From an uncultured Klebsiella sp. (GTDB taxonomy: Bacteria; Verrucomicrobiota; Verrucomicrobiia; Limisphaerales; SXTU01), in NCBI GenBank assembly GCA_964478755.1, contig CAYZJP010000003.1, positions 7,477-71,476 on the forward strand: 64,000 nucleotides of DNA. The letters are read 5' to 3'. The translations under genes and the position numbers were made by a program. Shown piece by piece: positions 2,681 through 60,687 of the stretch (position 1 is the stretch's first letter; every line of letters starts with the position of its first letter). The notes beneath the pieces were generated by a model. It was not told the origin of the DNA. It was given only the letters and a program-made list of their open reading frames with translations, and made no database searches.

Positions 2681-3802
2681 TCAGCGTTGCATCCGCCCTG
2701 CTTCGCGTTGAAAGAATTCCAGCCAGCCCAGCGTGATCGCATCTCCGATGGTGTTGGACTTGCGCAGTTCGCTGGGTGGCTTGCCCCAGTAGAAACCAAT
2801 CCAACCGGATGCGATGGCGCGGGACTCCGTGATGAACTGGCCGAATTCCGGGAACCCAGCTTGCAGTGGGAAGGCTTCCTCGATGACCACGGGCTTGCCC
2901 ACGGCGAAACCGCGCAGCGTCTCAATGGCCTTCGGCACTTCGCCTTTCTTCGGATAGAGGTGCACGCAGAGGAAGTCGAGGTCAGCGACGATTTTGTCCG
3001 GCACGAAGCCGCTGCGCAGGCCGGGCCGGTCTAGGCTCCAGTCCACGAGGCCGACAGTGACGAGATGCTTCGCGTCATGCTGGCGGATGGCTTTGGTTAG
3101 CGTGCGAATCCACGCGCTCGCGACGGTGTGCGGGACACGGCCGGTGGCGTCGAGTGTGATGACTTGGACAAAGTGTTTCCCGGCGAATGCAGGACCAAGC
3201 CAGTCGCCGGCCTTGCGCGGCCCGCCCGCGACGACCGGCTCGTTCATCAAGTCGTAGCAGAAGACAGCGGGGCTTTCCTTGCACTGCTTCGCGATGGTGG
3301 CCCAGAAATTCGCCTGCGCGGCCCAGCGTGACTTTTCGTCGAGCGCGTCATACCACGACGGCACGTCGGCCTTGTGGTAGCAGCCGAGGCCGGTGAGGTC
3401 CAGATGCAGACCGGTGCGCTCGGCGAGGGCAAGAAGCTTGGCGAGTTGCTTGAGCGACGTGCCGTTCGGCTGGTTCGTCGCATCCATGAACCTGCCGAAC
3501 TGGAGATGAATCCGCACGACGTTCGCACCGAGCTCCTTCATCTCGCGGAAGTCCGCCTCCACCTTCGGCCATTCGGTGAGCCAGTAGTCTTCAAGCAGCC
3601 GGCCGGTCTCGTCGTGGTCGTAGTTGAAGCCCCACGGGACGAAGGGCTTTCCGGACGCCGCGAGCGTGAAGCCTTTGCTGTCCTTGCTGGCCTGAATCCA
3701 ATCCAACGCGCTCGCCGCAATGCAGGCGAAGGCAAGGCCCAGCCCGGCGAGCCAGATGGCGGCGATCCGAATGCGGTGGTTCAAATTCATGGTGTTGCTC
3801 AC
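2681..3802 (-). CDS. glycoside hydrolase family 5-like (cellulase/mannanase type), secreted
   Basis: Signal peptide IAAIWLAGLGLAFACIAASA. NVVRIHLQF. The clan GH-A acid/base motif DLMNEP and the nucleophile region VVIEEAFP. The start is GTG at 3802 (4-nt overlap with the mnmE stop) or ATG at 3790. Confidence 0.7.
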   Translation of the reverse strand: MSNTMNLNHRIRIAAIWLAGLGLAFACIAASALDWIQASKDSKGFTLAASGKPFVPWGFNYDHDETGRLLEDYWLTEWPKVEADFREMKELGANVVRIHLQFGRFMDATNQPNGTSLKQLAKLLALAERTGLHLDLTGLGCYHKADVPSWYDALDEKSRWAAQANFWATIAKQCKESPAVFCYDLMNEPVVAGGPRKAGDWLGPAFAGKHFVQVITLDATGRVPHTVASAWIRTLTKAIRQHDAKHLVTVGLVDWSLDRPGLRSGFVPDKIVADLDFLCVHLYPKKGEVPKAIETLRGFAVGKPVVIEEAFPLQAGFPEFGQFITESRAIASGWIGFYWGKPPSELRKSNTIGDAITLGWLEFFQREAGRMQR

Positions 3803-5361
3803 TTTCCTATGCAGAACTGGCTAAAGATCGAGTCGAGCAAATCCTCCGTTGTCGTCCTGCCGACGATTTCGCCGACGGCGTTGACCGCGATGCGGAGATC
3901 CATTGCGACCAATTCCAACGAGGCTTCCGTGCGCAAGGCTTCCGCCGTCCGCAGCGTGGCGGCGCGCGCGCGCTGCAAGGCGTCCTGATGGCGTGAGTTG
4001 ATCATCACTTGCAGCATCTCGGCCTTGATCTCGCCCGCCCAGACGGCTCGCTTGATCGCGTCCTTGAGGGCTTCGAGGCCGGAGCCGGTGAGACACGACA
4101 CTTCAACGAAACGGCTGTCGGATTCGGATGCGGGATTTGGCCGAGCGAGCCGTTCCCCCTCACTCCTGCCCTTTCCCTCCGGGAGAGGGAGAGCCGCACC
4201 CAGCGCTGGGCTGGAGCCGGACACGTTCGGATGATCAGGAGCTGGACTGACTTTCTCCCTCTCCCTCCGGGAGAGGGCAGGGGTGAGGGGAAAGGCGTGG
4301 AACTTGCACAGAATCGCCTCACCGAGCCGATGAGGCAAATCTGCCTTGTTCAAAACGAGAATGCGTTTCTTCCCGGCGAACTCCACGAGGAATTGTTCAT
4401 CCTCCGCCGAGAGTGGTTCGCTCGCGTCGAGGACGTGGAGAATCAATTCAGCCTTGGCCACCATCGCGCGTGTGCGGCGGATGCCTTCCTGCTCGATGGC
4501 GTCGCGCGATTCGCGCAGGCCCGCCGTGTCCACGAACACGACGGGGAGGCCACGGATGTTCGCGGTTTCCTCGATGGTGTCGCGCGTGGTGCCAGCGACG
4601 GGCGAGACGATGGCGCGGTCGTGGCCGAGGAGCTGGTTGAGCAGCGAGGACTTGCCCGCGTTGGGCCGGCCGATGATCGCCGCGCGAATGCCGTGCCGAA
4701 GGATTTGTCCCTCGTCCGCCGTGCGTAACAGCTCGTCCATGAAGGCGACGCCGCGCTCCAGCTTCGCCAGCAACTGCCCGCGCGTGTCTGGCGCGATGTC
4801 CTCGTCCGGGAAGTCAATGTGCGCCTCGACGTGCGCGAGCACGCGCAGCAGGTCGTCGCGGAGCCGGTGGATGCGCTGGGAAAGTTTTCCAGTGAGCTGC
4901 TCGCCCGCCGCCGTGAGCGCAAGTTCGGTGCGTGCGCGAATGAGGTCGGCCACGGCCTCGGCCTGCGCGAGGTCGAGCCGGCCGTTGAGGAAGGCGCGCT
5001 GCGTGAACTCGCCCGGCTCGGCCAGCCGCGCACCGGCAGCGAGCAGCGCGTCGAGCACGAGCTTCGCGGGCAGCAGGCCGCCGTGGCAGGAAATCTCCAC
5101 CGTGTCCTCGCGCGTGAACGTGCGTGGCGCGCGCAGCACGGTGAGCAGCACTTCGTCAACGAACCGTCCGTCGCGCTCGATGCGCCCGTAATGCACCGTG
5201 TGCGACGCGGCGACGCTGGGTTTCTGCGAACTCTTGCCGACGGGCACGAACATCTTGTCCGCCACTGCGAGCGCCTGCGGCCCGGACACGCGCAGCACAG
5301 CGAGGCCGCCTTCCCCGAGCGGCGTGGCGGTGGCGGCGATGGTGTCGGAGAGGGAACTCAC
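3799..5361 (-). CDS. mnmE: tRNA modification GTPase MnmE (TrmE) with a ~65-70 aa repeat-derived insertion in the G domain
   Basis: N-terminus DTIAATATPLGEGGLAVLRVSG. G1 GRPNAGKS, TTRD, G3 DTAG, G4 NKAD. Diagnostic C-terminus FCIGK. The ORF is 520 aa, against ~450 aa for typical MnmE. Confidence 0.93.
   Translation of the reverse strand: MSSLSDTIAATATPLGEGGLAVLRVSGPQALAVADKMFVPVGKSSQKPSVAASHTVHYGRIERDGRFVDEVLLTVLRAPRTFTREDTVEISCHGGLLPAKLVLDALLAAGARLAEPGEFTQRAFLNGRLDLAQAEAVADLIRARTELALTAAGEQLTGKLSQRIHRLRDDLLRVLAHVEAHIDFPDEDIAPDTRGQLLAKLERGVAFMDELLRTADEGQILRHGIRAAIIGRPNAGKSSLLNQLLGHDRAIVSPVAGTTRDTIEETANIRGLPVVFVDTAGLRESRDAIEQEGIRRTRAMVAKAELILHVLDASEPLSAEDEQFLVEFAGKKRILVLNKADLPHRLGEAILCKFHAFPLTPALSRREREKVSPAPDHPNVSGSSPALGAALPLPEGKGRSEGERLARPNPASESDSRFVEVSCLTGSGLEALKDAIKRAVWAGEIKAEMLQVMINSRHQDALQRARAATLRTAEALRTEASLELVAMDLRIAVNAVGEIVGRTTTEDLLDSIFSQFCIGK
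4155..4295. repeat. family A palindromic element (CCCCTCAC..CCCTCTCCC-loop-GGGAGAGGG ... GGGAGAGGGC.GGGGTGAGGGG), intragenic copy in mnmE
   Basis: Left arm ccccctcactcctgccctttccctccgggagagggagag and right arm ctctccctccgggagagggcaggggtgagggg are inverted. Translated in frame as [14 protein letters not shown]...LPLPEGKGRSEGE. Confidence 0.85.
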
Positions 5362-6179
5362 TTTGCCGAAGCGGGTTTGACAACGACAACACCGCCTTCC
5401 GTTGGAGCCAGCGGTATTCCTGCGTCGGTGAGCAGTTGGTTCAAGAACGCCTTAGAACCCTCCGATACACCGACTTCCCATTGTTCGCTGCCTCGGTGAA
5501 GGGTGATGTAGCGGCACTGGTAGCAGATGAGCAAATCCAGTTCATCCGCCCCTCGTTTTATCCTGATTGCGTGGCGTGGCATGAAGCACAGCGCTTTCGA
5601 ACCATCCGAGCCGTCAATACTCGCCAGCACCGCCTTGACCAACTGCTGGTGCGTCAACGGGTTTTCGACCGCGACACGGCCCAGCAATGGATACCCACGA
5701 AACTCCCCAACGACCGGCAGTGAAGGTTTCTCGCGCTTGGTCGCGGCACGCGGCCACAGAGAGAGCACTTCGCCGCGTTCACTCTCGGTGAGCATGGTGC
5801 GGACCTCCGGCGGTAGGCGGCGCGGCGTGAAGCCACCGGAGATGGCGACGCCAGCGAGCATCACACCGTAGCAGAGCACGAGGTGGACGGCCGCCAAAGC
5901 AATGCTAGCTGCGACCAGCACCCAAGTTCTGGTCAGCCATTGCCGGTGTCGGGCGAGAACCGTGGCGACGGCGAACGCGACGGGAAAGAGGTAGAGGAAC
6001 TTCCGCAAGTTAAAGACCAACTGGAACACCGATGGCGTGCCAGAGATGGAGAAAAACATGATTCCCCAGCCCATGAACAGGTCAAGCGCGACAGCTAGGG
6101 CAAGGGAGAACACCGTCAGCAGCACCCACGGCAACGCCGGTCGCGTGTTCTTAACTGTGTTGGTGAGCTGTTCGCTCAT
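5358..6179 (-). CDS. hypothetical integral membrane protein (4 predicted TM helices plus a soluble C-terminal domain)
   Basis: Hydrophobic helices in the N-terminal 120 aa. The stop overlaps the mnmE GTG start by 4 nt, which suggests translational coupling. No recognisable family. Confidence 0.55.
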   Translation of the reverse strand: MSEQLTNTVKNTRPALPWVLLTVFSLALAVALDLFMGWGIMFFSISGTPSVFQLVFNLRKFLYLFPVAFAVATVLARHRQWLTRTWVLVAASIALAAVHLVLCYGVMLAGVAISGGFTPRRLPPEVRTMLTESERGEVLSLWPRAATKREKPSLPVVGEFRGYPLLGRVAVENPLTHQQLVKAVLASIDGSDGSKALCFMPRHAIRIKRGADELDLLICYQCRYITLHRGSEQWEVGVSEGSKAFLNQLLTDAGIPLAPTEGGVVVVKPASAK

Positions 6180-6462: not shown

Positions 6463-8382
6463 TTGGAAAGCCCGCCGGTTTCGGAAATGCTCACGCGCAT
6501 GGCAAAGCATCGCAGCCCATCCGCAGCACCCGTCTTCCTCGGCATCGAAGGCGGCGGCACGCGCACGGTGGCGCTGCTGGCGGCGGCGGACGGACGCTTG
6601 CTGAAGCACTTCGAGGCAGGGCCGGCGAATTTCAAGCTGCTCACGGAAGCGCAGTTTCTCCGCCGATTGCGCGAGGTGCGGGCGGCGTTCGCGGAATTTT
6701 CCCGGCCCGCCGCCATCGCCATCGGCCTCGCGGGCGCGCGCAGCGAGCCGGAGTGGCAGCGCATCCGCGCGGCGGCGGCGAAGATCTGGCCCAGCGTGCC
6801 GTGCCATGCGACGCATGATTTGGAAACGGCGCTGGCGGCGGCTCCTGCGACGGCGGTCTGCGACCGCCGTCGGCGCTCACACAGCGCCGCTACAGCCCAA
6901 GTCCTCCTCCTCAGCGGCACCGGCTCCTGTTTTTTCGCACGCTCGGCGGATGGGCGCACGGCGCGGTTCGGCGGCTGGGGCCACATTCTCGGCGACAAGG
7001 GCAGCGGCTACGAGATCGGCCTGCGGGCCTTGAAGGCGTGCGTTTTCTATCTCGACCGTGATGGCGACTGGACGCGGCTGGGGAAACGCATACTGCGCTC
7101 GCTGCAACTCAACGAGCCGAACGAACTCATTCCGTGGGCTCAAGCAGCGAGCAAGTCCGACATCGCGGCGCTCGCAGCGGAAGTCTTCGCCGCCGCCACT
7201 GAACGCGACGCCATCGCGGCGGACATTCTCAAAGGCGCGGCGGCGAGCCTGGCGAAGGACGGCGTGGCCTGCGCGAAGAAATTGGCGAAAGCCGGCGAGC
7301 CGGTGCAGTTCGTCCTCGCGGGGAGCGTGCTGCTGAAGCAGCCGAAGTTCGCGCGCGCTGTGGCGAACCAATTGGCCGAGAAGTGGCCGGGCTGTGTCGT
7401 TACGCCGCTGAAACGAGAGAGTGCGTGGGGGGCGGTCGAGCTGGCGCTACAGAGCGCGGGCTTCAGCCCGCAGCAGGCCACGACAGCTCAAGAAGAGTTC
7501 CGCAGTTCCTCACTCTCCGACTTGCGCAGCCCTCTGCGGCCTGAAGGCCGCACTCCACTCTCTCCGACCGAGCAGCGGAACCCGCGTTCAATGCACTTGG
7601 ACCGGATGCCCGTCGCCGACGCCATTGAGCTGATGCTGTCCGAGGACGAGCGAATTCCCGCCGCCATCCGGCGCGAGGCTCCGAAGATTGAGCGTGTCGT
7701 CGGGAAGATTGTCACCGCGTTCAAGCGCGGCGGGCGGCTGTTCTACGTCGGTGCGGGCACGAGCGGACGACTCGGAATTCTCGACGCAAGCGAATGCCCG
7801 CCGACGTTTCGCGTTCAGGCGGAGCAGGTGCAAGGCATCATCGCCGGCGGACAGACGGCGGTGTTCCGCGCGGTGGAAGGCGCGGAGGATGACTGCGAAG
7901 CGGGCGGGCGCGCAGTTCAGTTTCGCGGCGTCGCCAAACGTGACGTGGTGGTCGGCATCGCGGCGAGCGGTCGCACTCCGTTCATTCACGGCGCGCTGGC
8001 AGAAGCCCGAAAGCGCGGCGCGTTCACGGTCCTGCTTTGTTTCAACCCGGCGATGGCAAAACAGCGCGGCATCGCGCACGTGGTCATCGCGCCGGACACT
8101 GGGCCGGAGATTCTCACCGGCTCGACACGTCTCAAGTCCGGCACGGCGACGAAGTTGATCCTGAATTTGTTTACCACGCTGGCGATGGTCCGCACCGGCA
8201 AGGTCATCAGCAACCTGATGGTGGACCTGAATCCGTCGAACGTGAAGCTGCGCGACCGCGCGGTGCGCATCGTGCGCGAGCTGACCGATGCGGACCACGA
8301 CACGGCGAAGGCGGCGCTGGAAAAAACTGGCTGGGTGGTGAAGGCCGCGTGGAAACGACTTGGTGCCCCCGCCAGGAATTGA
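6463..8382 (+). CDS. murQ: fusion protein: BadF/BadG/BcrA/BcrD-type sugar kinase (MurK/NagK-like) + N-acetylmuramic acid 6-phosphate etherase (MurQ)
   Basis: N-terminal half: FLGIEGGGTRTV, LSGTGSCFF, GGWGHILGDKGSGYEIG (BadF-type GlcNAc/MurNAc kinase). C-terminal half: LSPTEQRNPRSMHLD, GGRLFYVGAGTSGRLGILDASECPPTF, GIAASGRTPF, LTGSTRLKSGTATKLILN (SIS-domain MurQ). The start may be a downstream in-frame Met (MLTRM or MAKHR). Confidence 0.85.
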   Translation: MESPPVSEMLTRMAKHRSPSAAPVFLGIEGGGTRTVALLAAADGRLLKHFEAGPANFKLLTEAQFLRRLREVRAAFAEFSRPAAIAIGLAGARSEPEWQRIRAAAAKIWPSVPCHATHDLETALAAAPATAVCDRRRRSHSAATAQVLLLSGTGSCFFARSADGRTARFGGWGHILGDKGSGYEIGLRALKACVFYLDRDGDWTRLGKRILRSLQLNEPNELIPWAQAASKSDIAALAAEVFAAATERDAIAADILKGAAASLAKDGVACAKKLAKAGEPVQFVLAGSVLLKQPKFARAVANQLAEKWPGCVVTPLKRESAWGAVELALQSAGFSPQQATTAQEEFRSSSLSDLRSPLRPEGRTPLSPTEQRNPRSMHLDRMPVADAIELMLSEDERIPAAIRREAPKIERVVGKIVTAFKRGGRLFYVGAGTSGRLGILDASECPPTFRVQAEQVQGIIAGGQTAVFRAVEGAEDDCEAGGRAVQFRGVAKRDVVVGIAASGRTPFIHGALAEARKRGAFTVLLCFNPAMAKQRGIAHVVIAPDTGPEILTGSTRLKSGTATKLILNLFTTLAMVRTGKVISNLMVDLNPSNVKLRDRAVRIVRELTDADHDTAKAALEKTGWVVKAAWKRLGAPARN

Positions 8383-11811: not shown

Positions 11812-13839
11812 TCACTGATGCCACTCGCCGGTGAAGGGCTTGTAGAACTGCTTCCACTCGCGCTCGAACCACACCGGCGACGACGGGAAGCCTTCCTGCC
11901 CCAGCGCGTCCACGGCGACGACGTAGTAGCGGCGCGCGGTCTGGCCCGCCTCGGGGTCGCTGAAAGTCGTCGCCGCGAGCGGCTCCGGCGTGAGGCGCGG
12001 GATGGGATCCTTGTCGTAGCGGCCGTTCATGCGATAGACGCGGTAGCCGCGCAGCGACTTCTCCGCGCTCGCCGCCCACTTGAGCTGGCACGTCACGCCT
12101 TCCTCTTTCGAGAATAGCCACTGCACCGGCGAAGGAATGGTTAGCTCCGCTGCGGAAGGACCGCTCTCCACGCCAGCCGTCGTCACCGCGCGCACGCGAT
12201 AGGCAAACACGGCAAGGCGATACGCCTTGCCCGTTGGGTCGAACTGCTCGGCGTTGAACTTTCGTTCGTAGAGCGGCGGTTCGGTGAATGGCTGCGGCTT
12301 GGTCAAATCAATGGTCGTGTCGGTGAACGCGGTTCCCGTCACGGGCGCGACCGTGAGCCGTTGGAAAGGCCCGACCTTCGTGATGGCCCCGACACTCGGT
12401 TCCACCAGTGGCTCGGTCTGGCGCTTGAGGCGGCGAAGCTGGTCCTCCGTAGCAACCTCGACCAACGCCCGCTCTACGTGGTAGCCGACCACGTTCTTCT
12501 CCGGCGACATCTTCCACGTCAGTTCGACGCGCTTCGCTCCGAGCACCGAGACTGTGATGTCCTCGACGATGCGAGGCTCAGTCGTCCCCGCCAAAAGTTT
12601 CGGTCGTTCGGCCCGCGTTCCGGCTTCTGCGTTCCTTGTTTCCAACCGCAAGGCCCACACCTGTTGCTCCGCCGGCCCCTGCGGCGGGTGCGTGCGATTC
12701 TCCAAGAGAAATGCGTTCAACTCCGGCGCAAAGACGATATTGCGCGCGCGGTTGCCGGACGGGTCCGGCTCGCGCGGCGGGTTCATCTTGGTCCACTGGT
12801 TCGCACCGGCATCGAAGGCCCACGTCTCCAAGCGCGACTTCGCGTTGTCATCCGTGCCTTCGCTCACTTTCACCACAGCCAGCACAACGCGGTTCACCGA
12901 GTCATAGGCGAGCACGGCGTCGTTCTTGTCCGTGGGCGGCAGCGCGGCAGGCTTGAGGCTGGTCCACTTGTTCTCGACGAAGCTGTAGGCCCACGTGTGC
13001 GGGTCGTTGTTGAACTGCGCTCCGAAAAGGATGTGCAGCCGGCGCGCGGCGTCGTAGGCCATGTTTCCCCCGCTGCGGAACTCCGGTTGCGGCGAAGTCC
13101 GCTTGAACTTCCACTCATTCGAGTGCGAGTCATAGACCAGCGTGCCCTCGGTGCTCGTCTCGCCGCCGAAGAGCACGACGACATCCTGCGACGTGTCCCA
13201 CGCCGCGCAGCGCAGCGGCTTGGGGCTGGCGGTGGGAATGGGGCGGAGATTGCGCCACTTGTTCTCAGCGAGGTCGTAGCTCCAGACCGACGAGTCATTC
13301 AGATAAATCTCGCGCCACCACTGCCAGCCGTGGCTGCCGCTGAAGGACGGGAAGCGCAGGTAGCGGCTCTGATTCGGGTCGAACACGTTTTGCTGACCGC
13401 AGCAAATCCCCGGCGGCTGGATGTTCGGCTCCTTCAAAGTCCACCTCGCCGTGAGCGGGTCGAAGGTCCACATCTCCGAATGCTGTTCACCGCCTCCGCC
13501 TTGGTTGTGCCCGCCGTAACGGATCATCACCTGATGCTTCGCATCCCACACGCACGCGCCCTCGTAGCCGAGCCGCGGCGACGGCGGCGTGTTGGTGAGC
13601 GGCGAGAGCTTCACCCAGGAGTTCAGCGGCAAGTCCAATCCCGCGCCTGATGCAACGTGCGTTGTGAGCGCGAGCACTGCCAGGAGACATTTCAAGCCAC
13701 GTGTTGAACGCGGATCAAACACGTATCGGGAATCATCAGGACGGCATGAAGGCAGAGATTCTGCGGAGAGGCTTCGGTCAGATTCCCTTCCTGCCTTCCT
13801 GCGTTCCTGATTCTTGCCTGTGTTCAATCCGTGTTTCAT
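11812..13839 (-). CDS. secreted Kelch-repeat beta-propeller protein with C-terminal Ig/FN3-like domains
   Basis: Kelch-type repeats (IRYGGHNQGGGGEQHSEMWTFDP, VVLFGGE, WTSLKP, WTKMNP). Hydrophobic signal segment LKCLLAVLALTTHVASGA. The ATG at 13839 lies inside a family B repeat. GTG at 13722 (MFDPRSTRGLKCLL...) is an alternative start. Confidence 0.7.
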   Translation of the reverse strand: MKHGLNTGKNQERRKAGRESDRSLSAESLPSCRPDDSRYVFDPRSTRGLKCLLAVLALTTHVASGAGLDLPLNSWVKLSPLTNTPPSPRLGYEGACVWDAKHQVMIRYGGHNQGGGGEQHSEMWTFDPLTARWTLKEPNIQPPGICCGQQNVFDPNQSRYLRFPSFSGSHGWQWWREIYLNDSSVWSYDLAENKWRNLRPIPTASPKPLRCAAWDTSQDVVVLFGGETSTEGTLVYDSHSNEWKFKRTSPQPEFRSGGNMAYDAARRLHILFGAQFNNDPHTWAYSFVENKWTSLKPAALPPTDKNDAVLAYDSVNRVVLAVVKVSEGTDDNAKSRLETWAFDAGANQWTKMNPPREPDPSGNRARNIVFAPELNAFLLENRTHPPQGPAEQQVWALRLETRNAEAGTRAERPKLLAGTTEPRIVEDITVSVLGAKRVELTWKMSPEKNVVGYHVERALVEVATEDQLRRLKRQTEPLVEPSVGAITKVGPFQRLTVAPVTGTAFTDTTIDLTKPQPFTEPPLYERKFNAEQFDPTGKAYRLAVFAYRVRAVTTAGVESGPSAAELTIPSPVQWLFSKEEGVTCQLKWAASAEKSLRGYRVYRMNGRYDKDPIPRLTPEPLAATTFSDPEAGQTARRYYVVAVDALGQEGFPSSPVWFEREWKQFYKPFTGEWHQ

Positions 13840-13850
13840 CCGTGGCTCCT
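13690..13850. repeat. family B inverted-repeat element (AGCCACGGATGAAACACGGATT.AACAC ... GTGTTT.ATCCG..GTGGCT)
   Basis: On the minus strand: aggagccacggatgaaacacggattgaacac - about 100 nt - cgtgtttgatccgcgttcaacacgtggcttgaaatg. The left arm is near-identical to the copy at 36958. Confidence 0.8.
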
Positions 13851-34500: not shown

Positions 34501-36948
34501 ATGAAACGCTTTCTGATCTTTGCGTGTGCCTTTTCTGCCTCGTTCAGCCTCTTGGCCGCGCCGGCAGCGGACCCGGTCACGGAGGTGCGCGTCACGCCAT
34601 CGTCGCTGACGCTCGTCAACGCACAGCGACCGCACTCGCTCGTCGTAATGGCGCGCACGAAGGGCGGCTACGACGTGGACCTCACCGGCAAGGCGACCTT
34701 CCGCAGCAGCAGTGAGAAAGTGGCGCGCGTTGATTCGGCCGGTTGGGTGCGGCCAATCGCGAACGGCAGCACAACCATCACCGTGAGCGCCGGCGGGCGC
34801 ACGGTAAAGGTGAGCGTGACCGTGCAATTGCCCGCCGAGCCGGTGGCGATGAGTTTCCGGCAGGACGTGATGCCGGTGTTGTCCAAAGGCGGTTGCAACG
34901 CGGGCGCGTGCCACGGCTATTCGCTCGGAAAAAACGGCTTCAAGCTGACGTTGCGCGGCGCGGACGCGGAGAAGGATTATCCAGCGCTGACGGATGAGTT
35001 CATGGAGCGCCGCATCAACCGTCACAATCCCGCCGCGAGCCTGCTGCTGCTCAAGGCGACCGGCGACCTGCCGCACGAGGGCGGCGTGCGTTTCGACCGC
35101 GGCAGCCTGATGGATGAAACACTGCGCCGCTGGATCACCGAAGGCGCAAAGGACGATGCGCCATCGCTGCCGACGCTGGTGTCGGTCACGATTTATCCAG
35201 AGAAGGTCGTCGCGCTGCCGCGCGCTCGGCAGCAGTTCCAGCTTGTCGCAAAATACAGCGACGGCTCCACGCGCGACGTGTCCCGCACCGGCATCTTCAA
35301 CGTGAACACCGAGCGCGTCGCGAAGGTGGATGACGTTGGTTTAGTGACAGCAACCGATCTCGGCGAGACGGCGATTGTTGCGCGCTACGAAGGAATTTTC
35401 GCCGTGGCAAATTTCATCGTGCTGCCACCGAGCAAGAGTTTTCAGCCGACACCCGTGCCGGAAGACAACTTGGTTGACCGGAATGTCATTTCCAAGTTGA
35501 ACGACCTTCGCATCAAACCCTCCGAGCTGGCCGACGACAAGCGCTTCCTCCGCCGCGTGTCCGTGGACCTCATCGGTGTGCAGCCCAAGCCGGAGGAAGT
35601 GCTCGCGTTCGTCGCCGACACGAGCGCGGACAAGCGCGAAAAGGTGGTGGATGCGTTGATGAAGCGAGCCGAGTTTGTGGACTGGTGGTCATTGAAGTGG
35701 GGCGACCTGTTGCAGAACTCCCGCAACACGATGAGTGACCCGGCGGTGTATGCGTTCCGCGAATGGATTCGCGCGGCCATTGCGCGCAACCTGCCGCTGG
35801 ACCAGTTTGCCCGCGAGATTCTCACGGCGCGCGGCAGTTTTGTGGACAATCCCGCCGCCGGCTACTTCGCCGTCAGCAAGGACACCGACGACACAATGCA
35901 GCGCGCGACGCAGGTCTTCGCCGGCGTGCGGATGCTTTGCGCGCGGTGTCATCCGCACCCGTTCGAGCACTGGACGCAGGCTGACTACTACGGCGTCCAC
36001 AGCTTCTTCAATCAAGTGACGACGAAGGCCGATCCGCGCCAGACCGGTGTGCAGAATGCGAAGACGATTTTGGTGAACTTTTCCGCCGGCAACTCGACCA
36101 ATCCCCGCACCGGCAAGCCGCAGCCTCCGCGTTATCTCGGCGGTGGCGAACCGAAGCTGGATACGGGCATTGACCGCCGCGCCGATTACGCGCAATGGCT
36201 GACTTCGCCGGAAAACCCGCACTTCGTGCGCAGCCTCGCCAATCGCATCTGGAGCTACTTCTTCCATCGCGGCATCATTGACCCCGTGGACGACTTGCGT
36301 TCGACCAGCCCGCCCATCAACCCGGCGCTGCTCGACGCGCTGACGAAGGATTTCGTGGAGCACCAGTTCGACATGCGCCATCTCATGCGCGTCATCGTCA
36401 CATCGCGCACGTATCAGCGCAGCTCGACGCCGAACGAAACCAACGGCCACGACGACGCGAACTTCTCGCACGCCATCCCGCGCCGCCTGCCGGCCGAGGC
36501 GATGCTCGACTCACTCGTGCAGGCGACCGGCGTGAAGGAAAACTTCGGCGGTGCTCCGGCGGGCTTCAGCGCCGCGCAACTGCCGGACGGAAATGTGCAG
36601 AGCGATTTCCTGAAACTCTTCGGCAAGCCCTCGCGCATGGAGGCGTGCGAGTGCGAGCGCGACCTCGGCGCGAACATGCTGCAGGCACTGCACTTCATCA
36701 ACGGCAAGTCCATCCTCGACCGCGTCACAAGCGGCAGCGGGCGCCCCGCGCTGCTGCTCGCGCAGAAGCCTGGCGATGACAGGCTCATCGAGCAGCTTTA
36801 CCTCTGGTCGCTCGCGCGCAAGCCGACCTCTGCCGAGATCGCGCTGGCAAAGAAGTTCATCGCCTCTTACGCAGACAAGCGCGCCGAGGCCGCGCAGGAT
36901 TTTATGTGGAGCCTGCTCAACAGCCGCGATTTCACGATGCTCCACTGA
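34501..36948 (+). CDS. Big_2 + DUF1549 (PSCyt2) + DUF1553 (PSD1) protein
   Basis: FRQDVMPVLSKGGCNAGACHG, CARCHPHPFEHWTQADYY, LRRVSVDLIGVQP, and a C-terminal MLQALHFINGKS / WSLLNSRDF. Confidence 0.88.
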   Translation: MKRFLIFACAFSASFSLLAAPAADPVTEVRVTPSSLTLVNAQRPHSLVVMARTKGGYDVDLTGKATFRSSSEKVARVDSAGWVRPIANGSTTITVSAGGRTVKVSVTVQLPAEPVAMSFRQDVMPVLSKGGCNAGACHGYSLGKNGFKLTLRGADAEKDYPALTDEFMERRINRHNPAASLLLLKATGDLPHEGGVRFDRGSLMDETLRRWITEGAKDDAPSLPTLVSVTIYPEKVVALPRARQQFQLVAKYSDGSTRDVSRTGIFNVNTERVAKVDDVGLVTATDLGETAIVARYEGIFAVANFIVLPPSKSFQPTPVPEDNLVDRNVISKLNDLRIKPSELADDKRFLRRVSVDLIGVQPKPEEVLAFVADTSADKREKVVDALMKRAEFVDWWSLKWGDLLQNSRNTMSDPAVYAFREWIRAAIARNLPLDQFAREILTARGSFVDNPAAGYFAVSKDTDDTMQRATQVFAGVRMLCARCHPHPFEHWTQADYYGVHSFFNQVTTKADPRQTGVQNAKTILVNFSAGNSTNPRTGKPQPPRYLGGGEPKLDTGIDRRADYAQWLTSPENPHFVRSLANRIWSYFFHRGIIDPVDDLRSTSPPINPALLDALTKDFVEHQFDMRHLMRVIVTSRTYQRSSTPNETNGHDDANFSHAIPRRLPAEAMLDSLVQATGVKENFGGAPAGFSAAQLPDGNVQSDFLKLFGKPSRMEACECERDLGANMLQALHFINGKSILDRVTSGSGRPALLLAQKPGDDRLIEQLYLWSLARKPTSAEIALAKKFIASYADKRAEAAQDFMWSLLNSRDFTMLH

Positions 36949-36957
36949 GCGCGCAGA

Positions 36958-37105
36958 TTTTAGCCACGGATGAAACACGGATTAAACACGGAGAGAATAC
37001 AAGCTAAACGCGGAGATGCGTTCAGTCATGCTCGCATTCGATTCTCCGGCGTGCCGACCTCACCTTTCATCCGTGTTTCGTCAGTGTTTCATCCGTGGCT
37101 AAAAA
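36958..37105. repeat. family B inverted-repeat element filling the intergenic gap
   Basis: tagccacggatgaaacacggattaaacacgg - about 80 nt - ccgtgtttcgtcagtgtttcatccgtggctaaaaatc. The arms are reverse complements. Confidence 0.85.
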
Positions 37106-38460
37106 TCATTTTTGCTTTTCTCCTCGGCAGCCTTTCAGCCAATGCCACAGATGTGAGCTACCAGCGCGACGTGTGGCCGATTTTTCGGCGGCACTGCGTC
37201 GGCTGTCACAGCGAACAGAAGGTCAAGGGCGGTTTGCGACTCGACGACGTGAGCGCGCTGCGGAAGGGCGGCAAGACCGGCCCGCTCTTCGTCGCGGGCA
37301 AGCCGGACAAGAGCTTGCTCATCAAACAAATCAGCGGCGAAAAACCCGAAATGCCTGACAACGAGCCGCCGCTCTCCGCCGCTAAGGTGAAGCTGCTGCG
37401 CGACTGGGTCGTGCAGGGCGCAAAGATTGATGCCGCGCCAAAGCCCGGCGGTCCGCCGGTGGTCATCCCCGCGATTTACGCCACCGCGCCCGCCGTGACG
37501 AGCGTGACCATCAGCCCGGATGGCAAGCTCGCCACCGCGGCGTGCCGCAGCGAGGTCGTGCTGTTCAATGTGGACGATGACAGCGCGCCGCGCCGTTTGC
37601 CGACGGACTTCGATCTCGTCACGCACGTTGAGTTCAGCCCGGATGGGAAGCGATTGGCCGTCGCGGGCGGTTCGCCGCAGCAGTTTGGTGGAGTGATTTT
37701 CTTCGATGCGGAAGGACGCCGCCAGTCCTCGCGGCGCATTGGCAACGACACGTTGTTCAAGGGCAACTTCGCGCCCGATGGCCAGGCCATCGCGCTCGGC
37801 ACGGCCACGGGCGCGGTGGTCATCGTGCCTGTGGACACGAACGCAGCGCCGAAGTCCATCGAGTTGCACAGCGACTGGGTGATGGCCGTGGCTTACACCA
37901 TGGACGGCAAACAGCTCGTCAGTGGCAGCCGCGACAAGACGACGAAGTTGAGCAGCGTCGAGAGCCTGAAGCTGCTGCGCTCGGTGGATCAGTCCACTGA
38001 CATCATCAACGCCGTCGCCGCTGATGGGACAAACGCCATCTCTGCCGGCAACGCGCGCACAGTGACTGGCTTCGATCTCAAGCTCGCGCTCACCGTTGTG
38101 GAAGTCACCGGCTCCGGCAACGGCGCGCAGCCCGTCAACAACCGCGATCAATACGTCCGCAACTTCGAGGCGCAGGCCGAGCCGGTGATGGCGCTCGCCA
38201 CGAGCGGCGACCGCAAGCTGCTCGCCGTCGCCACGCGCGGTGCCGAGGTGCGGATTTACCAGACCGACAATCGGCAGCGGAAAACTTCCATCACAAACGC
38301 GCCTGCGCCCGTTCTCGGCATCGCGCTCAGCCGTGATGGCACGCGCCTCATTCTTGGCAGCAAGAGCGGGCAGGTGCAGATTTACGACGTGGGTTCGGCC
38401 AAGCTTGTGAAGTCGCTCGTGCCGGTTCCCACACAACCGATCAGGGCTGCTTCAAGGTAG
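36970..38460 (+). CDS. planctomycete-type cytochrome c domain (PSCyt1) + WD40 beta-propeller protein
   Basis: WPIFRRHCVGCHSEQKVKGGLRLD (CxxCH), PEMPDNEPPLS, then WD40-like blades. The ATG at 36970 is in the repeat's left arm. GTG at 37084 (MFHPWLKIIFAFLLGSLSANA) is an alternative start that gives a normal signal peptide. Confidence 0.8.
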   Translation: MKHGLNTERIQAKRGDAFSHARIRFSGVPTSPFIRVSSVFHPWLKIIFAFLLGSLSANATDVSYQRDVWPIFRRHCVGCHSEQKVKGGLRLDDVSALRKGGKTGPLFVAGKPDKSLLIKQISGEKPEMPDNEPPLSAAKVKLLRDWVVQGAKIDAAPKPGGPPVVIPAIYATAPAVTSVTISPDGKLATAACRSEVVLFNVDDDSAPRRLPTDFDLVTHVEFSPDGKRLAVAGGSPQQFGGVIFFDAEGRRQSSRRIGNDTLFKGNFAPDGQAIALGTATGAVVIVPVDTNAAPKSIELHSDWVMAVAYTMDGKQLVSGSRDKTTKLSSVESLKLLRSVDQSTDIINAVAADGTNAISAGNARTVTGFDLKLALTVVEVTGSGNGAQPVNNRDQYVRNFEAQAEPVMALATSGDRKLLAVATRGAEVRIYQTDNRQRKTSITNAPAPVLGIALSRDGTRLILGSKSGQVQIYDVGSAKLVKSLVPVPTQPIRAASR

Positions 38461-41239: not shown

Positions 41240-41425
41240 GCCCCGCAGGGGCTGCAACAAACCAGCCCAGGGCAACGCCCTGGGTTATGGTCGTCCAAAA
41301 TCCACCAAGCCCTGAAAGGGCGGCACAAACGGCGTGGTTGTTTCGCCCTTTCAGGGCTTGGGAACATTTTTGAAACCACGTTCCTGGGGCGTTGCCCCAG
41401 GCTGGTTTGTCATGCGCCTTTGGCG
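41240..41425. repeat. family C REP doublet (inverted pair, centre near 41330)
   Basis: aaaccagcccagggcaacgccctggg...aagccctgaaagggcggcacaaac | gttgtttcgccctttcagggctt...ccaggggcgttgccccaggctggttt read as reverse complements. Confidence 0.85.
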
Positions 41426-41502
41426 CGGTTTGCGACGGCGCGCATCTCCGATACCACGGCCGGTCGTTGTCCTGCCACGCTTCACTTCGAATCACTTGGT
41501 TC

Positions 41503-41955
41503 TCAATCCCACACATAACGTTCATCGAATTCGATTTCATGCCGCTTGAACAACGCGCGCAACTCGTCTTGAAACGTCACCTTGCGATGGTGTGGCTCCT
41601 GGTTTGCAATGTAACGGCTCACGGCTTCCGAGTTGGACTGGCTTACGGAGAACGCGGCGTAGCCCGCCTGCCAGCAGAACGCGGAATTGCGCGGTCCATC
41701 CGACTTCATCCACTTGGAGCTGCCCTTCTTCACTTCCTCGACAACCTTTTTCAAAGCGTGGTTCTTCGACAACGAGATCAGGGCATGCACATGGTCCTCC
41801 ACGCCACCGATTATCAGCGCCGGACTTTCCCACTCCTTGAAAATGCCCGCCTGATAGGCGAACAGCGCTGCGCGATGTTCTTTGGGAATCCAAGCCTGCC
41901 GGTGTTTCGTGCTGTAAACGAGATGCACCAGGTTCTTGACGAGTGATTGGGACAT
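41503..41955 (-). CDS. IS200/IS605-family Y1 (HUH) transposase, REP-associated (RAYT-like)
   Basis: 150 aa. HUH motif in GVEDHVHALIS. WQAGYAAFSVSQS. Catalytic-Tyr helix VSRYIANQEPHH. Confidence 0.8.
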   Translation of the reverse strand: MSQSLVKNLVHLVYSTKHRQAWIPKEHRAALFAYQAGIFKEWESPALIIGGVEDHVHALISLSKNHALKKVVEEVKKGSSKWMKSDGPRNSAFCWQAGYAAFSVSQSNSEAVSRYIANQEPHHRKVTFQDELRALFKRHEIEFDERYVWD

Positions 41956-41967
41956 GCACGGTGCGCG

Positions 41968-42268
41968 TCGGCTTGTTTCGCCCTTTCAGGGCTCGTTGCA
42001 ATTCTGATCCGTTGACCCAGGGCGATGCCCTGGGCTGGTTTGTCTCTGCCCCTTCGGGGCGCAGCAGCGGCGACAGTTCAGGACATCGCTCACTATTAGC
42101 TCACTGGCGAAACGGCCCTTCGACAATCCAAAGCGGGACATCGACACTCTTGTAGGTGTTCGAACGAACGGGATTTCTGGCCCGAAGGGCCTCAACAGAC
42201 CAGCCCAGGGCAACGCCCTGGGAGAGATCCGCCACACAGTTGGCCAGCCCTGAAAGGGCGGAACATTT
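41968..42268. repeat. family C REP units (inverted pair separated by ~100 nt)
   Basis: 41968-42066 gcttgtttcgccctttcagggc...cccagggcgatgccctgggctggtttgtctctgccccttcggggc. 42170-42268 ggcccgaagggcc...accagcccagggcaacgccctggg...gccagccctgaaagggcggaac. Confidence 0.8.
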
Positions 42269-55036: not shown

Positions 55037-55111
55037 GGTGAAAAGCGAAAACTCACCTACCCCGCCTCGTGCGACAGAATTCGCCAGTGCATCGTCACGC
55101 GGCCGCGCGTT

Positions 55112-55247
55112 CTCCCTCACCCCTGCCCTCTCCCGCTGGGAGAGGGAGGACGTTCGACTGCGGGGGGCGTTGCGCGGCGCGCTCCCGGAGATGACGCGTC
55201 CCGGCCCGCTCCCCTCTCCCAGCGGGAGAGGGAAAGGGTGAGGGAGA
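55112..55247. repeat. family A palindromic element, intergenic copy
   Basis: ctccctcacccctgccctctcccgctgggagagggagg ... ctcccctctcccagcgggagagggaaagggtgagggag. Confidence 0.85.
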
Positions 55248-55297
55248 AAAGCGACGAAGCTTTTGAGGTTTGAGAGTTCACGGGCCGGTTCGTGGAT

Positions 55298-56685: not shown

Positions 56686-56784
56686 AGCGAGTGAGGTCGA
56701 GCGTAGTCACCAGCAAGGAAGCTGGAAGGAGAAAATTTGCCCCCGCTTGCCTCTCGCTGCTCCCTCTCCTACCTTCCGCGCCGC

Positions 56785-59700
56785 ATGTCGAAGAAGCCGC
56801 CGCCGTCTGCCAGTGTCATCCGCCTCCACGGCGTGCGGCACAACAACCTCAAGGGCTTCGACCTCGACCTCCCGCTCGGCAAGCTCATCGTCGTCACCGG
56901 CCTGAGTGGGTCCGGCAAAAGCTCGCTCGCCTTCGACACGCTCTACGCCGAGGGCCAGCGGCGCTACATCGAGACCTTCTCGCCCTACGCGCGGCAGTTC
57001 TTCGACCGCATGGACAAGCCGCGGGTGGACAGCATCGAGGGCATCCCGCCGGCCATCGCCATCGAGCAGCGCAACGCCGTCCGCACCACGCGCAGCACCG
57101 TCGGCACGATGACGGAGATTTGCGATCACCTGAAAATCCTCTGGCCGCATCTCGCGACGTTGCATTGCCGGAAGTGCGGCAAGCCCGTGGAGAAAGAGCC
57201 GCCGCAGAAGGTTTGGGAGCGGGTGAATGCGGAACACGGAATGCGGAATGCGGAATGTCTGGTGACGTTCGACCTCGCGCTTTCCGAAAAGCTCGCGCTC
57301 AAGGAATCCCTCGACCTCATCGCCAGGCAGGGCTACCAGCGGCTTCTCCTCAATGGCGAAATGGTCCGCCTCGACGACGCGCTCGTGAAACTACGGAGCG
57401 CCGAGCATCGCTCGGCAGGAGCGGACGAGCACACCACGGCCGAGCAATGCCCGGCGCTCCGACGAGGCCTTGCCGCACTCACCATTGTCCAAGACCGCCT
57501 CAAGCTCGCCGCCGCCAGCCGCGCCCGTTTCATCGAAGCCTGCGAGCAGGCCTACCACTTCGGCAAAGGGAAACTCGCGATTTACGACGTGTCGAACGAT
57601 CCGGCCATTCCGCACTCCGCACTCCACACTCCGCATTTCTTCTCCAACCGTTTCCACTGCGCGCAGTGCGATCTCGATTATCGCGAGCCTTCCCCCGCGC
57701 TCTTCTCGTTCAACCACCCCGTCGGCGCGTGTCCGGCGTGCAAGGGCTTCGGGCGCGTCATAGGCATTGACTATGAGCTGGCGATTCCCGACCGCTCGAT
57801 CTCAATCAAGGCTGGCGCGGTGAAGCCGTGGCGCACCGGCACCGGCGCGGAGTCGCTGGCCGACCTCGCGAAGTTCTGCAAGAAACTCGGCGTGCCGATG
57901 GACGTGCCGTTCCGCGATTTGAGCGAAGCGCACCAACGCTGGGTCATCGACGGCGACCCCGGCTACGACTCGAACGATCCCGCGAACTCGTGGCCAAAGA
58001 AGTGGTATGGCGTGAAAGGCTACTTCCGCTGGCTGGAGAGCAAGAGCTACAAGATGCACGTGCGCGTGCTGCTCTCGCGCTACCGCAGCTACACGCGCTG
58101 CCCCGCGTGCGAGGGGAAGCGCCTTCAGCCGGAAAGTCTTTTGTATCGCGTCGAAGTGCCAAGTCTCACCGGTTTGTCTGCTGACACTCTCCCCCTCACC
58201 CCGGCCCTCTCCCGCTGGGAGAGGGAGACACGCAGTCCGCGTCTTGCCGAATCGAAGCGCCCCGCACAGACACCGCCGCTAGCTGCGTCATTCGGTTCTC
58301 ATGCAACCGCGCCTTCAACTAGGGGCACAAGCCTGCAACTAACGCTGACTGCCATTCCCCCTCTCCCAGCGGGAGAGGGCCGGGGTGAGGGAGAACGGCC
58401 CGTTCAGTTGACACTGGCGGACTTCTACTCCCTCTCCGTGAGCCGCGCCCTCGCTGTCATCACCGCGTTGCACGAGCGCCTCTTTCCCATCTCCCATCTC
58501 CCATCTCCTATCTCCTCCGCCTCCCCGCTCGCTCACGCGCTCGAAGAAGTCCGCTCCCGCCTTGCCTACCTCGTCGAGGTCGGCCTCGGCTACCTCACGC
58601 TCGACCGCGCCACGCGCACGCTTTCCGGCGGCGAGACCGAGCGCGTAAATCTCACCACCTGTCTCGGCACGCGCCTCGTCAACACCCTCTACGTCCTCGA
58701 CGAGCCGAGCGTGGGCCTGCACCCGCGCGACACCGCGCGCCTCGTCGTCATTCTCCAACGCCTGCGCGATCTTGGGAACACCGTCATCGTCGTCGAACAC
58801 GAAGCCGCCGTGATGCGCGCCGCCGACCAGATCGTGGACCTCGGCCCCGGCCACGGAGAGACCGGCGGTGAACTCGTCTTTCAAGGCACGCTCGCGGAAC
58901 TTCTCCGCCATCCCGTCTCGCTCACTGGGCAATACCTGAGCGGGCGAAAGATGGTCGAAGAACGGAATCCGAGGCCGGTGGAGTTGCGCGGAGCCGCGTC
59001 GTCGAACAACGCCACGTTCCCCCTCACCCCGGCCCTCTCCCCAAGGGAGAGGGAGGAGCGCAGCCCGCGTCCTGGCGAGTCCATGGCCGTCCGAAGTCAG
59101 AGCAGCACAGCTTCGCGCGAAACGCGGACTGCCATTCCCCCTCTCCCCCAGGGAGAGGGCCGGGGTGAGGGGAAAGGAATCGCCCAGCATTCTGATGGTA
59201 GAGAACCATCTACGAACTCCCCCGCTCACTTTCTCACCCTCTCCGGCGCCTCCGCCCACAATCTCAAAAACCTCACCGTCTCCATTCCGCTTGGCCGCTT
59301 CGTCTGCCTCACCGGCGTGAGCGGCTCCGGGAAGTCCACGCTCGTCCGCGACTGCCTGCTGCCAGCGCTCGCCTCGGTGCTCAAAGTCGCCGAAACTCAG
59401 GCGCTACCAGGTGAAACGGACGACAAAGTGACCAAGACAGACATCAAACCAAGTGGGCAGGAGGTGAAACTGATTGGGTTTGATGTGAAACAGATTCAGT
59501 CGGACGTGAAACCTAGTGGGTCTGACATTAAACTAAGTGGGTCTGACGTTAAACTTAGTGGGTCTGGCAATAAAGTTTATGAATCTGGCGTTCAATTCAG
59601 TGACTTGAATGCCAAAGTTGACGACTCTGGCGTCAAACCAAGCGACTTTGACGAGCCATCCGGTGAGTTTGTCCAGCCCGGCACCGCCCGCGTCATCGGA

Positions 59701-60687
59701 GCCGGGCACTTGAGCCGGTTTATCCTCGTGGACCAGACGCCGCTGGGCAAAACGCCGCGCTCCACCCCCGCCGTTTACATCGGAGCCTTCGATGACTTGC
59801 GCGAAGTCTTCGCCCAGACGGAACTCGCCAGGCAGCGCGGCCTGAACAGCAGCGCCTTCAGCTTCAACTCCGCCGCCGGCCAGTGCGACCGCTGCCGGGG
59901 CGCGGGCTTCGAGAAGATTGAAATGCAGTTCCTCAGCGACGTGTTCATCAAGTGCCCCGCGTGCGAGGGACGGCGCTATCGGGAGCACATTCTGGAGGTG
60001 AAGGTGGAGGTTCAAGCTTCAAGGTTTCAGGTTTCAGGAGCCGGGACTTCCGCGGGCCGACCGCACGCGAAGGCATCCGTCTCCACCTTGAACCTTGAAC
60101 CTGAAACCTTGAACCTGTCCTGGAGCATCGCCGACCTCCTCGCCGCCAGCGTGGATGAATCCCTCGCCTTCCTCGCCGCGCTGCCGGACTCCAAACCCGC
60201 CCAGCGCGCCGCCGCCGCGCTGCGCGTGTTGCAGGAAGTCGGCCTCGGCTACCTGCGCCTCGGCCAGCCGATCAACACCTTGAGTGGCGGCGAGAGCCAG
60301 CGGCTGAAACTCGCGGCGCACCTCGCTGAAGCAAGCAGTCGAGAGTCGAGAGTCGAGAGCCGAGAGCCGGAAGCAGCCGCCGTAGCACAGCCCTCGACCC
60401 TCGACCCTCGACTCTCGACCCTCTTCGTCTTCGACGAGCCGACGACTGGCCTGCACTTCGAGGACGTGCGCGTGCTCGTCGCCGTCTTCCAGCGGCTCGT
60501 GGACGCGGGCCATACCGTCCTCGTCATCGAGCACAACCTCGATGTGATCCGCGCCGCCGACTGGTTGATTGACCTCGGCCCCGAAGCGGGCGCCGCCGGC
60601 GGCGAACTCGTCATCGCCGGCACACCGGAGGAGGTGGCGAAGTGCGAGCGCAGCCACACTGGCCGCTTTCTGCGGGACGCGCTTTAG
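56785..60687 (+). CDS. UvrA-family ABC ATPase (excinuclease subunit A or paralogue) expanded by multiple in-frame repeat insertions
   Basis: [14 protein letters not shown], Walker [32 protein letters not shown], Zn-module CxxC pairs, [25 protein letters not shown]. Second half: [62 protein letters not shown] at 56785 (MSKKPPP) is preferred over the track start at 56737. Confidence 0.85.
58189..58393. repeat. family A palindromic element, intragenic (UvrA-family ORF)
   Basis: ctccccctcaccccggccctctcccgctgggagagggag ... gactgccattccccctctcccagcgggagagggccggggtgaggg. Translated as [13 protein letters not shown]...[14 protein letters not shown]. Confidence 0.88.
59019..59175. repeat. family A palindromic element, second intragenic copy in the same ORF
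   Basis: ttccccctcaccccggccctctccccaagggagagggagg ... gactgccattccccctctcccccagggagagggccggggtgagggg. Translated as [13 protein letters not shown]...[14 protein letters not shown]. Confidence 0.88.
59440..59670. repeat. AT-rich 21-bp tandem array (~10-11 units) inside the UvrA-family ORF
   Basis: Units such as gacatcaaaccaagtgggcag / gacgtgaaacctagtgggtct / gacattaaactaagtgggtct / gacgttaaacttagtgggtct / ggcgtcaaaccaagcgacttt. They encode the heptads [70 protein letters not shown]. Confidence 0.85.
60008..60116. repeat. hairpin whose arms are heptamer tandem repeats (GGTTCAA/GGTTTCA vs CCTTGAA/CCTGAAA)
   Basis: aggttcaagcttcaaggtttcaggtttcagg - about 47 nt - ccttgaaccttgaacctgaaaccttgaacctg. 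Confidence 0.8.
60338..60423. repeat. hairpin whose arms are heptamer tandem repeats (GTCGAGA vs CCCTCGA)
   Basis: gtcgagagtcgagagtcgagagccgagagccgg - about 21 nt - ccctcgaccctcgaccctcgactctcgaccctc. Confidence 0.8.

Follow-up and report, generated by a model that had tools for sequence, protein, structure and literature searches.

Rickettsia palindromic elements, of about 100-150 bp, can be found in frame in protein genes and can be translated there without destroying the protein (PMC10969869). Correia repeats are co-transcribed, are substrates of RNase III and can alter the expression of neighbouring genes (PMC10969869). REP units carry a tetranucleotide tag, GTAG (or CGTC), at one end, while the TIR families found around TIRYT genes (TIRtrons) are moderately abundant long inverted repeats, often dimers, and are known from PVC genomes as well as others (PMC3733652). 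The feature described here lies at positions 36958-37104 of a 64,000-nucleotide stretch of contig CAYZJP010000003.1 (assembly GCA_964478755.1), which is called the window throughout, and belongs to a non-coding family of palindromic interspersed repeats that is widespread in PVC bacteria. As a palindromic interspersed repeat it is a mostly ordinary finding in kind, and the known system closest to it in behaviour is the Rickettsia palindromic elements. What is noteworthy is a family present in two phyla, for which neither a target duplication nor a transposase was found in the loci sampled, and of which one copy would serve as the translated 5' end of a gene.

The locus consists of the following parts, in window coordinates.

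34501..36948, plus strand: upstream cistron, a PSCyt2 (DUF1549) / PSD1 (DUF1553) protein, identified by domain matches
36958..36992, plus strand: left (5') arm, TTTTA + GCCACGGATGAAA CACGGATTAAA CACGGA, holding ATG 36970-36972
36993..37069, plus strand: variable central part (loop), with a small sub-hairpin of its own; read in frame if translation begins at the ATG
37070..37104, plus strand: right (3') arm, TCCGTGTTTCGTCAGTGTTTCATCCGTGGC + TAAAA, holding GTG 37084-37086 and coding ..SSVFHPWLK
36970..38460, plus strand: PSCyt1 + WD40 beta-propeller ORF, 496 aa from the left-arm ATG or 458 aa from GTG 37084

An earlier note on this DNA had proposed an inverted repeat of about 140 bp beginning 10 nt past the stop of the DUF1549/DUF1553 gene. 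Both points are confirmed: the gene ends at 36948 and the repeat starts at 36958, with arms of 35 nt that are 91% complementary and spaced 77 nt apart. The left arm is built of tandem 11-nt units (CACGGATGAAA / CACGGATTAAA), and the right arm is TTTCATCCGTG repeated three times. The arm 18-mer GCCACGGATGAAACACGG occurs four times in the window against 0.1 expected, a count that includes the second copy described below. Folding the region as RNA yields -73 kcal/mol, compared with -38.8 +/- 3.4 for dinucleotide shuffles (z = -10.1), and places both ATG 36970 and GTG 37084 within the predicted stem, in agreement with the long hairpin over the start region that the note had put forward; a strong hairpin over the start region is predicted in every WD40 orthologue as well (z -3 to -12). 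An Rfam scan of the region returned chance-level matches only (E of at least 0.13, under gathering scores), and a consensus scan for promoters and terminators found none on the sense strand of the element, no sigma-70-like promoter among them. An intrinsic (Rho-independent) terminator was considered and rejected: the stem is followed by TAAAA with no U-tract, and the scan finds no terminator coinciding with it on the sense strand. Resemblances to a CsrA GGA motif (ACACGGAUG), a parS half-site (TGAAACA) and a DnaA box (TTAGCCACG) we take, for now, to be coincidences.

ATG 36970 and GTG 37084 are both in frame with the PSCyt1-WD40 ORF and no stop codon separates them, just as the note had claimed. 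Read from GTG 37084, the product is MFHPWLKIIFAFLLGSLSANA, and the hydrophobic core with its ANA cleavage motif ends at 37146. The only canonical in-frame starts before this core are ATG 36970, GTG 37051 and GTG 37084. Because all three are inside the element, the start of the WD40 gene must, as judged from the reading frame, lie there too, and the proposal that the element supplies the start of the downstream secreted protein holds for this gene.

Orthologous loci make it possible to ask how much of the element is read. The left-arm ATG keeps its in-frame, stop-free relation to the WD40 gene in all 15 evaluable loci (about 12 distinct lineages; L128, which contains Ns, was left out), and the peptides read from it begin MKHGLNT.., MKHSLKS.., MKHRLES.. 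or MDTNRHEW.... The distance from this ATG to a conserved anchor (YQRDVWP) takes these values.

189 nt: the window
198 nt: eight loci
201 nt: L130
240 nt: L142
348 nt: L125
357 nt: L127, L131 and L145

All of these lengths are multiples of 3, across a nested insertion of about 150 nt and a replacement of arm type, and the implied length changes (at least five, each with a one-in-three chance of keeping the frame) would add to the case for translation. Ten of ten loci have no in-frame stop, against one to four stops per locus in the +1 frame, and five further orthologous loci are also stop-free. When loops are shuffled, a locus stays free of in-frame stops with a probability of 0.13-0.51; multiplied over nine lineages this comes to 10^-4.4, a value that somewhat overstates independence in that the lineages are related. 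L127, L131 and L145 have GCG in the right arm in place of GTG, which leaves no start codon beside the hydrophobic core, so these three must start upstream.

A second kind of evidence is the rate at which the parts of the element change. Among the five closest loci with CACGGAT arms, mean pairwise identity is 0.93 for the left arm and 0.83 for the right arm, compared with 0.51 for the loop and 0.62 for fourfold-degenerate sites of the adjacent gene, values from which the arms are evidently conserved well above the neutral rate. The only loop indel among these five is a 9-nt deletion in the window. Arm mismatches are uncompensated on the opposite arm, and the constraint is therefore on arm sequence (or reflects homogenisation) and not on pairing. 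By these comparisons the whole element appears to be kept readable in frame by selection, and the locus offers what seems unusually clear comparative evidence that a repeat became the translated 5' end of a gene.

Orthologues of the WD40 protein are numerous and mostly 455-459 aa in length. Distant orthologues start MRRFAIIL... and have a plain MRRF... signal peptide; close orthologues start MFHPWLK, MFHSWLR or MFHLWLK, or are called from MKHGLNT.... In a neighbour-joining tree the element-bearing WD40 proteins form one clade, and all proteins outside it are without the element. All fetched loci have the DUF1549/DUF1553-WD40 gene pair in conserved synteny. At L123, a locus without the element, a single nucleotide separates the two genes (TGAcATG; CTGCACTGAcATG), and in all the other fetched loci the element fills the intergenic gap. 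The 1-nt gap of the element-free locus and the single clade of element bearers together point to one old insertion at a translationally coupled junction, probably kept in all descendants. The orthologous loci differ in arm type.

CACGGAT arms: window, L120, L121, L124, L126, L141, L143/L144
CACAGAT arms: L122, L125, L127, L131, L145
CACGAAT arms: L128, L130, L142

Some orthologous loci have loops from other subfamilies with the boundaries unchanged, and we infer from the swaps of arm type and loop that copies have undergone replacement by, or ectopic gene conversion with, other members of the family. L130 (2852-3005) has a layered palindrome at the WD40 site, with CACGAAT arms around a degenerate CACGGAT mini-hairpin. 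The loop in L125, L127, L131 and L145 contains a nested palindrome of about 150 nt (GCGGCGAGTTCTCGCCGCTTTCCGCAGGCGAC...GTCGCCTGCGGAAAGCGGTGACAAGTCACCGC), kept in frame, that codes ..ECGEFSPLSAGD..KAVTSHRTPK...

The explanation we lean toward, with moderate confidence, is that the WD40 gene has its translation start in an old insertion, which is itself translated and lengthens the signal peptide at its N-terminus. A copy of the repeat would have inserted, in the ancestor of one verrucomicrobial clade, exactly at the coupled-gene junction (TGAcATG), displacing the original start, and the PSCyt1-WD40 gene would have started inside the element from then on. Since the stem encloses both candidate starts, we propose that the ribosomes beginning at the arm ATG probably come from the upstream cistron, which ends 16-33 nt ahead of that ATG, and that they translate on through the hairpin. 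The 40-120 mostly basic residues coded by the element would then make up an N-terminal extension before a cleavable signal-peptide core, and would either be removed together with the signal peptide or remain in the cytoplasm as an anchor tail. Since such an extension precedes the cleaved core, the mature protein would be unaffected and an insertion would be tolerated in genes for secreted proteins. The right-arm GTG may serve as a second start. Arm conservation and the swaps of arm flavour and loop would probably both result from ectopic gene conversion, filtered at this locus for versions that are in frame and stop-free. It is the conservation of the frame that suggests initiation at the arm ATG. 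Against this stand three considerations: an ATG inside a stem of about 30 bp is a poor initiation site, an extension of 45-120 aa before a signal peptide is unusual, and most gene calls for the orthologues, with their typical length of 455-459 aa, fit the right-arm GTG. The explanation as a whole has a precedent in the same genome, where other palindromic repeats occur in frame inside uvrA and mnmE.

The wider family was collected by a scan for the exact arm 18-mer over one genome per species (1.2e12 positions), which found it in more than 119 genome stretches where about 17 are expected by chance. Among the matches listed (80 loci), 57 are in Planctomycetota lineages, 21 in Verrucomicrobiota lineages and 2 elsewhere. 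Plasmid and phage collections gave no match to the element; IMG/VR has nine matching stretches. Alignment of 143 distinct arms reveals a sharp terminus, a consensus of about 31 nt (R-GCCACGGATGAAA-CACGGATnrAA-CACGGAT), a purine-rich stretch next to it and random sequence beyond. Arm positions 19-31 are 59-98% conserved, except for variable positions 21-22. Just outside the terminus, position -1 is A in 76% of arms and G in 22%, and at positions -2 to -4 T has a frequency of about 50%, compared with 19.5% in the background. This TTT-R flank is identical on the sides facing gene starts and those facing gene ends, and is therefore a property of the element or its target, independent of gene context. 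Paired elements (n = 85) are continuously distributed in length between 56 and 555 nt (median 109), and 41 exact arms have no recognisable partner. Single arms do not fold alone (-0.1 and -0.3 kcal/mol). Loops vary between copies, and subfamilies with common loops occur in unrelated loci (the loop start AATCAGGAA.G.AGGAAGGCAGGAA, for example, is common to the second copy of the window and L122). In a 6.3-Mb planctomycete contig (L047, 371-830) the element and a 27-nt spacer are repeated in tandem, with a 121-nt period and 3-4 units.

As for coding capacity, the elements have no conserved ORF, and a protein database search with the element-encoded peptide returned one repeat-array ORF and 21 short stand-alone hypothetical ORFs. 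Target-site duplication was sought in 72 clean elements, where direct repeats of 2-8 nt are no commoner than in shuffled pairings, and TA/TA flanks occur in 12 of the 72, as independent flank frequencies predict. Across about 0.9 Mb of sampled loci, no distant inverted partner (as a parent IS would provide) was found for the 41 solo arms and no protein family recurs near the arms, and tblastn found no Y1_Tnp homologue in about 130 arm-bearing loci. A full-text search of the literature, including arm sequences and encoded peptides, found no description of the family, which is apparently undescribed and has near-identical arms in two phyla. Arms identical over 18-31 nt in two phyla, without target duplication or linked transposase, point to some mobilising or homogenising mechanism. 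The element is probably a non-autonomous mobile element, now or once; no empty-site pair between close strains was found and mobility is inferred only.

The relation of the family to genes was examined with gene calls from a codon log-odds model, checked on the window. Only two of the 85 elements are inside an ORF, though ORFs make up 86% of bases. Of the element ends that face a gene, 80 are turned to its 5' end and 83 to its 3' end; the genes around elements are arranged in tandem (58), convergently (10) or divergently (10), and the stop codon of a gene reading towards an element is a median of 31 nt away. In four of 56 cases the frame opened by the left-arm ATG continues into the downstream gene, two of these cases being the window's own copies and two incidental (the true start at L012 is clearly farther downstream, and the L009 element is inside a long ORF); the other two frames read through five and two times. 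The earlier note had suggested that the element could act as a mobile 5' cassette. Family-wide there is no positional, orientation or frame bias to gene starts, and with no such bias and in-frame read-through so rare, the "5' cassette" fails as a family property. A family-wide coding frame was likewise rejected: element length modulo 3 is uniform (33/25/27 among the 85 elements) and, compared with shuffled loops, stops are depleted to much the same degree in each of the three frames. The outward-reading arm has GTG in two frames (GTG TTT CAT CCG TGG C; CC GTG GCT AAA), and this terminal GTG is the best available start in several unrelated loci, e.g. L019 (MAKSFFLIVVVSLLVGAGLHA followed by AEP) and L062, from which it follows that start-codon donation is a recurrent accident of where elements land. 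One of the two intragenic copies, at 1312-1404 of L009, is in frame in a long ORF with a methyltransferase-like motif (DPCCGSGHF).

These counts also place the family with respect to the Rickettsia palindromic elements, which it resembles as a palindromic interspersed repeat of about 100-150 bp and in the conservation of an ORF through the element in 15 of 15 loci at the WD40 site. The sequences, however, are unrelated, and the hosts are Verrucomicrobiota and Planctomycetota instead of Rickettsia, so the PVC repeat is not a member of that group. The PVC family is also overwhelmingly intergenic (2/85 in ORFs) and rarely read through in frame (4/56), its translated case is at the extreme N-terminus, before a signal-peptide core, and provides the start codon itself, and it has no CGTC tag (PMC3733652).

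A different account of the WD40 locus, which we regard as unlikely, makes the element a host-selected cis-regulatory RNA, whose hairpin would mask the real start (GTG 37084), or whose cleavage by RNase III would set the cistron ratio or stability, or both, the open frame being a by-product. Such an RNA would account for a very stable hairpin that buries both starts and is present in all orthologues, for arm conservation in excess of neutral, and for the location of elements a median of 31 nt after stops and mostly between co-directional genes, and it has a precedent in the RNase III cleavage of co-transcribed Correia repeats (PMC10969869). A pure RNA switch has no need, however, of a frame kept open over 189-357 nt in 15 of 15 loci. 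The right-arm GTG that it would mask is absent from three loci, the arm mismatches go uncompensated, loops and arm flavours have been swapped wholesale, and Rfam has no match.

Rather improbable, to our mind, is a REPIN/REP-type or TIR-type repeat moved by a tyrosine (HUH, Y1) transposase (RAYT or TIRYT), without target duplication and beside a short T-rich target. The absent target duplication and the short T-rich motif at the end would suit single-strand (HUH) or recombinase-type mobilisation, TTT-R being found just outside both termini in any gene context, and REP-like features extend to an inverted doublet that forms a hairpin, an extragenic location near gene ends and long persistence. 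Y1_Tnp genes are present in this genome and a relative, and TIR families linked to Y1 transposases are known (PMC3733652), the PVC repeat resembling them as a moderately abundant long-inverted-repeat family in PVC genomes. The Y1_Tnp genes seen are flanked by another repeat, however (GCCCTGAAAGGGCG), and the roughly 130 arm-bearing loci contain no homologue. REP/REPIN membership in the defined sense was accordingly rejected: a REP unit is an imperfect palindrome of 20-40 nt, whereas the PVC arms are not themselves palindromes (single arms stay unfolded) and consist of 11-nt units in tandem; neither GTAG nor CGTC is present in the arm consensus RGCCACGGATGAAACACGGAT; no RAYT is flanked by PVC arms in the sampled loci; and the arms are identical across two phyla instead of lineage-specific. 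The repeat differs from TIRtrons in that the sampled loci have no tyrosine transposase gene between or beside the arms, and in that it has no GGGGWSAS motif.

Doubtful to a similar degree is the proposal that the family, instead of being selfish DNA in decay, is an actively maintained PVC hairpin module, in which a sequence-specific partner, a protein or a recombination system, would keep the arms of 11-nt units identical in two phyla and overwrite copies. Overwriting in place by such a partner would explain the swaps of arm flavour and loop with unchanged boundaries, as well as the layered palindromes. The ends (GTG..GTG GCT AAA) would then be a portable translation start and signal-peptide n-region, and initiation at the stem-buried ATG would enforce strict translational coupling in operons. 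Least credible of all is a classical DDE-transposase MITE (Correia or IS630-like, with TA duplication), very improbable despite terminal inverted repeats, small size, the lack of any coding of its own, flanks that are often ..TA / TA.. and nested, clustered copies, since TA/TA flanks are at chance level with no 2-8 nt direct repeat enriched, position -1 is a purine that looks like part of the element, lengths are continuous and not discrete, and no parent IS with these ends was found in the sampled loci. Without target duplication or parent IS, the repeat is not a classical MITE or Correia element. It is like a Correia repeat in its size of about 100-150 bp, terminal inverted repeats, position next to genes, co-transcription and long duplex, a possible RNase III substrate that may alter the expression of the adjacent gene; it differs in having no detectable TA duplication and no sense-strand sigma-70-like promoter, in its variable loop, and in sequence and hosts.

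The window contains a second copy of the family, before a gene for another secreted protein.

13690..13850, minus strand: second copy of the repeat family (arms span 13696-13846), 5' arm 13846->13816 with ATG 13839; degenerate 3' arm ending TTG AAA (13696)
11812..13839, minus strand: Kelch-repeat secreted protein; starting at the arm ATG (MKHGLNTGKNQERRKAG...), its ORF runs without a stop into MKCLLAVLALTTHVASG

The note's statement that the same architecture recurs at 13690-13850 is correct, with the gene on the minus strand and the distal arm degenerate (18/25 matches). The fold of this copy is predicted at -70 kcal/mol (z = -6.1). From the arm ATG the Kelch ORF reads MKHGLNTGKNQ...GLKCLLAVLALTTHVASG, and the orthologue P0122 has the same arrangement. 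Gene-caller outputs for Kelch orthologues, taken at the protein level, have N-terminal extensions from at least three different palindromic repeat families (MKHRLNTETNQESRKAG...; MTARETRETTRK...FACFACFAG; SPSPLPSPAGRG...). On sequence grounds the Kelch gene behind the second copy fits the pattern of N-terminal extension. The MTARETRETTRK...FACFACFAG family is at the Kelch N-terminus in P0124, P0128-P0130, P0133 and P0134 (orthologues of window 11812-13839), and the right arm of this repeat seems itself to code the hydrophobic core of the signal peptide. In orthologue P0138 an MKHGLK start is fused directly to the core. The second copy of the window is layered, with CACGGAT arms around inner CAGGAAG-type arms.

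For annotation, such repeats yield many spurious small ORFs in PVC genomes and MAGs (MKHGLNT..., ..IRVSSVFHPWLK) and make start calls for secreted proteins inconsistent, the same gene being called at anything from 456 to 555 aa. The WD40 locus would be a clean and dated case in which an inserted repeat took the place of a gene's start codon and was kept clade-wide, and frame and stop-freeness across a fast-evolving hairpin provide a measurable signature of translation. With it, the concept of "selfish DNA inside genes", familiar from Rickettsia, would come to include Verrucomicrobia and the N-termini of signal peptides, a place from which the added peptide is presumably lost.

Other repeats in the window belong to different families. 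A Y1_Tnp (IS200/RAYT-like) gene at 41506-41985 on the minus strand (E = 3.5e-22), within 41257-42265, is flanked by REP-like hairpins (GCCCTGAAAGGGCG and CCCAGGGC.A.GCCCTGGG), and the same arrangement is found at 6560-7480 of L129, with the Y1_Tnp gene at 6743-7195. Gene and flanking hairpins are a REPtron-like unit, unrelated to the element at 36958-37104. As mobilisers of that element the Y1_Tnp genes (in the window and by the orthologous locus L127/L129) were rejected, being flanked by another REP, with none in the arm-bearing loci. The uvrA gene at 56707-60687 (plus strand) codes for 1326 aa, where a typical uvrA product is about 950 aa, and has four in-frame inverted-repeat insertions.

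58190-58394: in-frame repeat in uvrA
59017-59175: in-frame repeat in uvrA
60015-60116: in-frame repeat in uvrA
60338-60423: in-frame repeat in uvrA

Two of the four belong to the family TTCCCCCTCACCCC...GGGAGAGGG, with coded peptides of the form ..PPLPxGEGRGEG, and uvrA is a case like that of the Rickettsia palindromic elements, with repeats inside an essential repair gene. The same family supplies an in-frame repeat (4153-4293) in mnmE/trmE at 3799-5451 on the minus strand, where it codes ...LPLPEGKGRSEGE, and further copies are found at 55110-55248.
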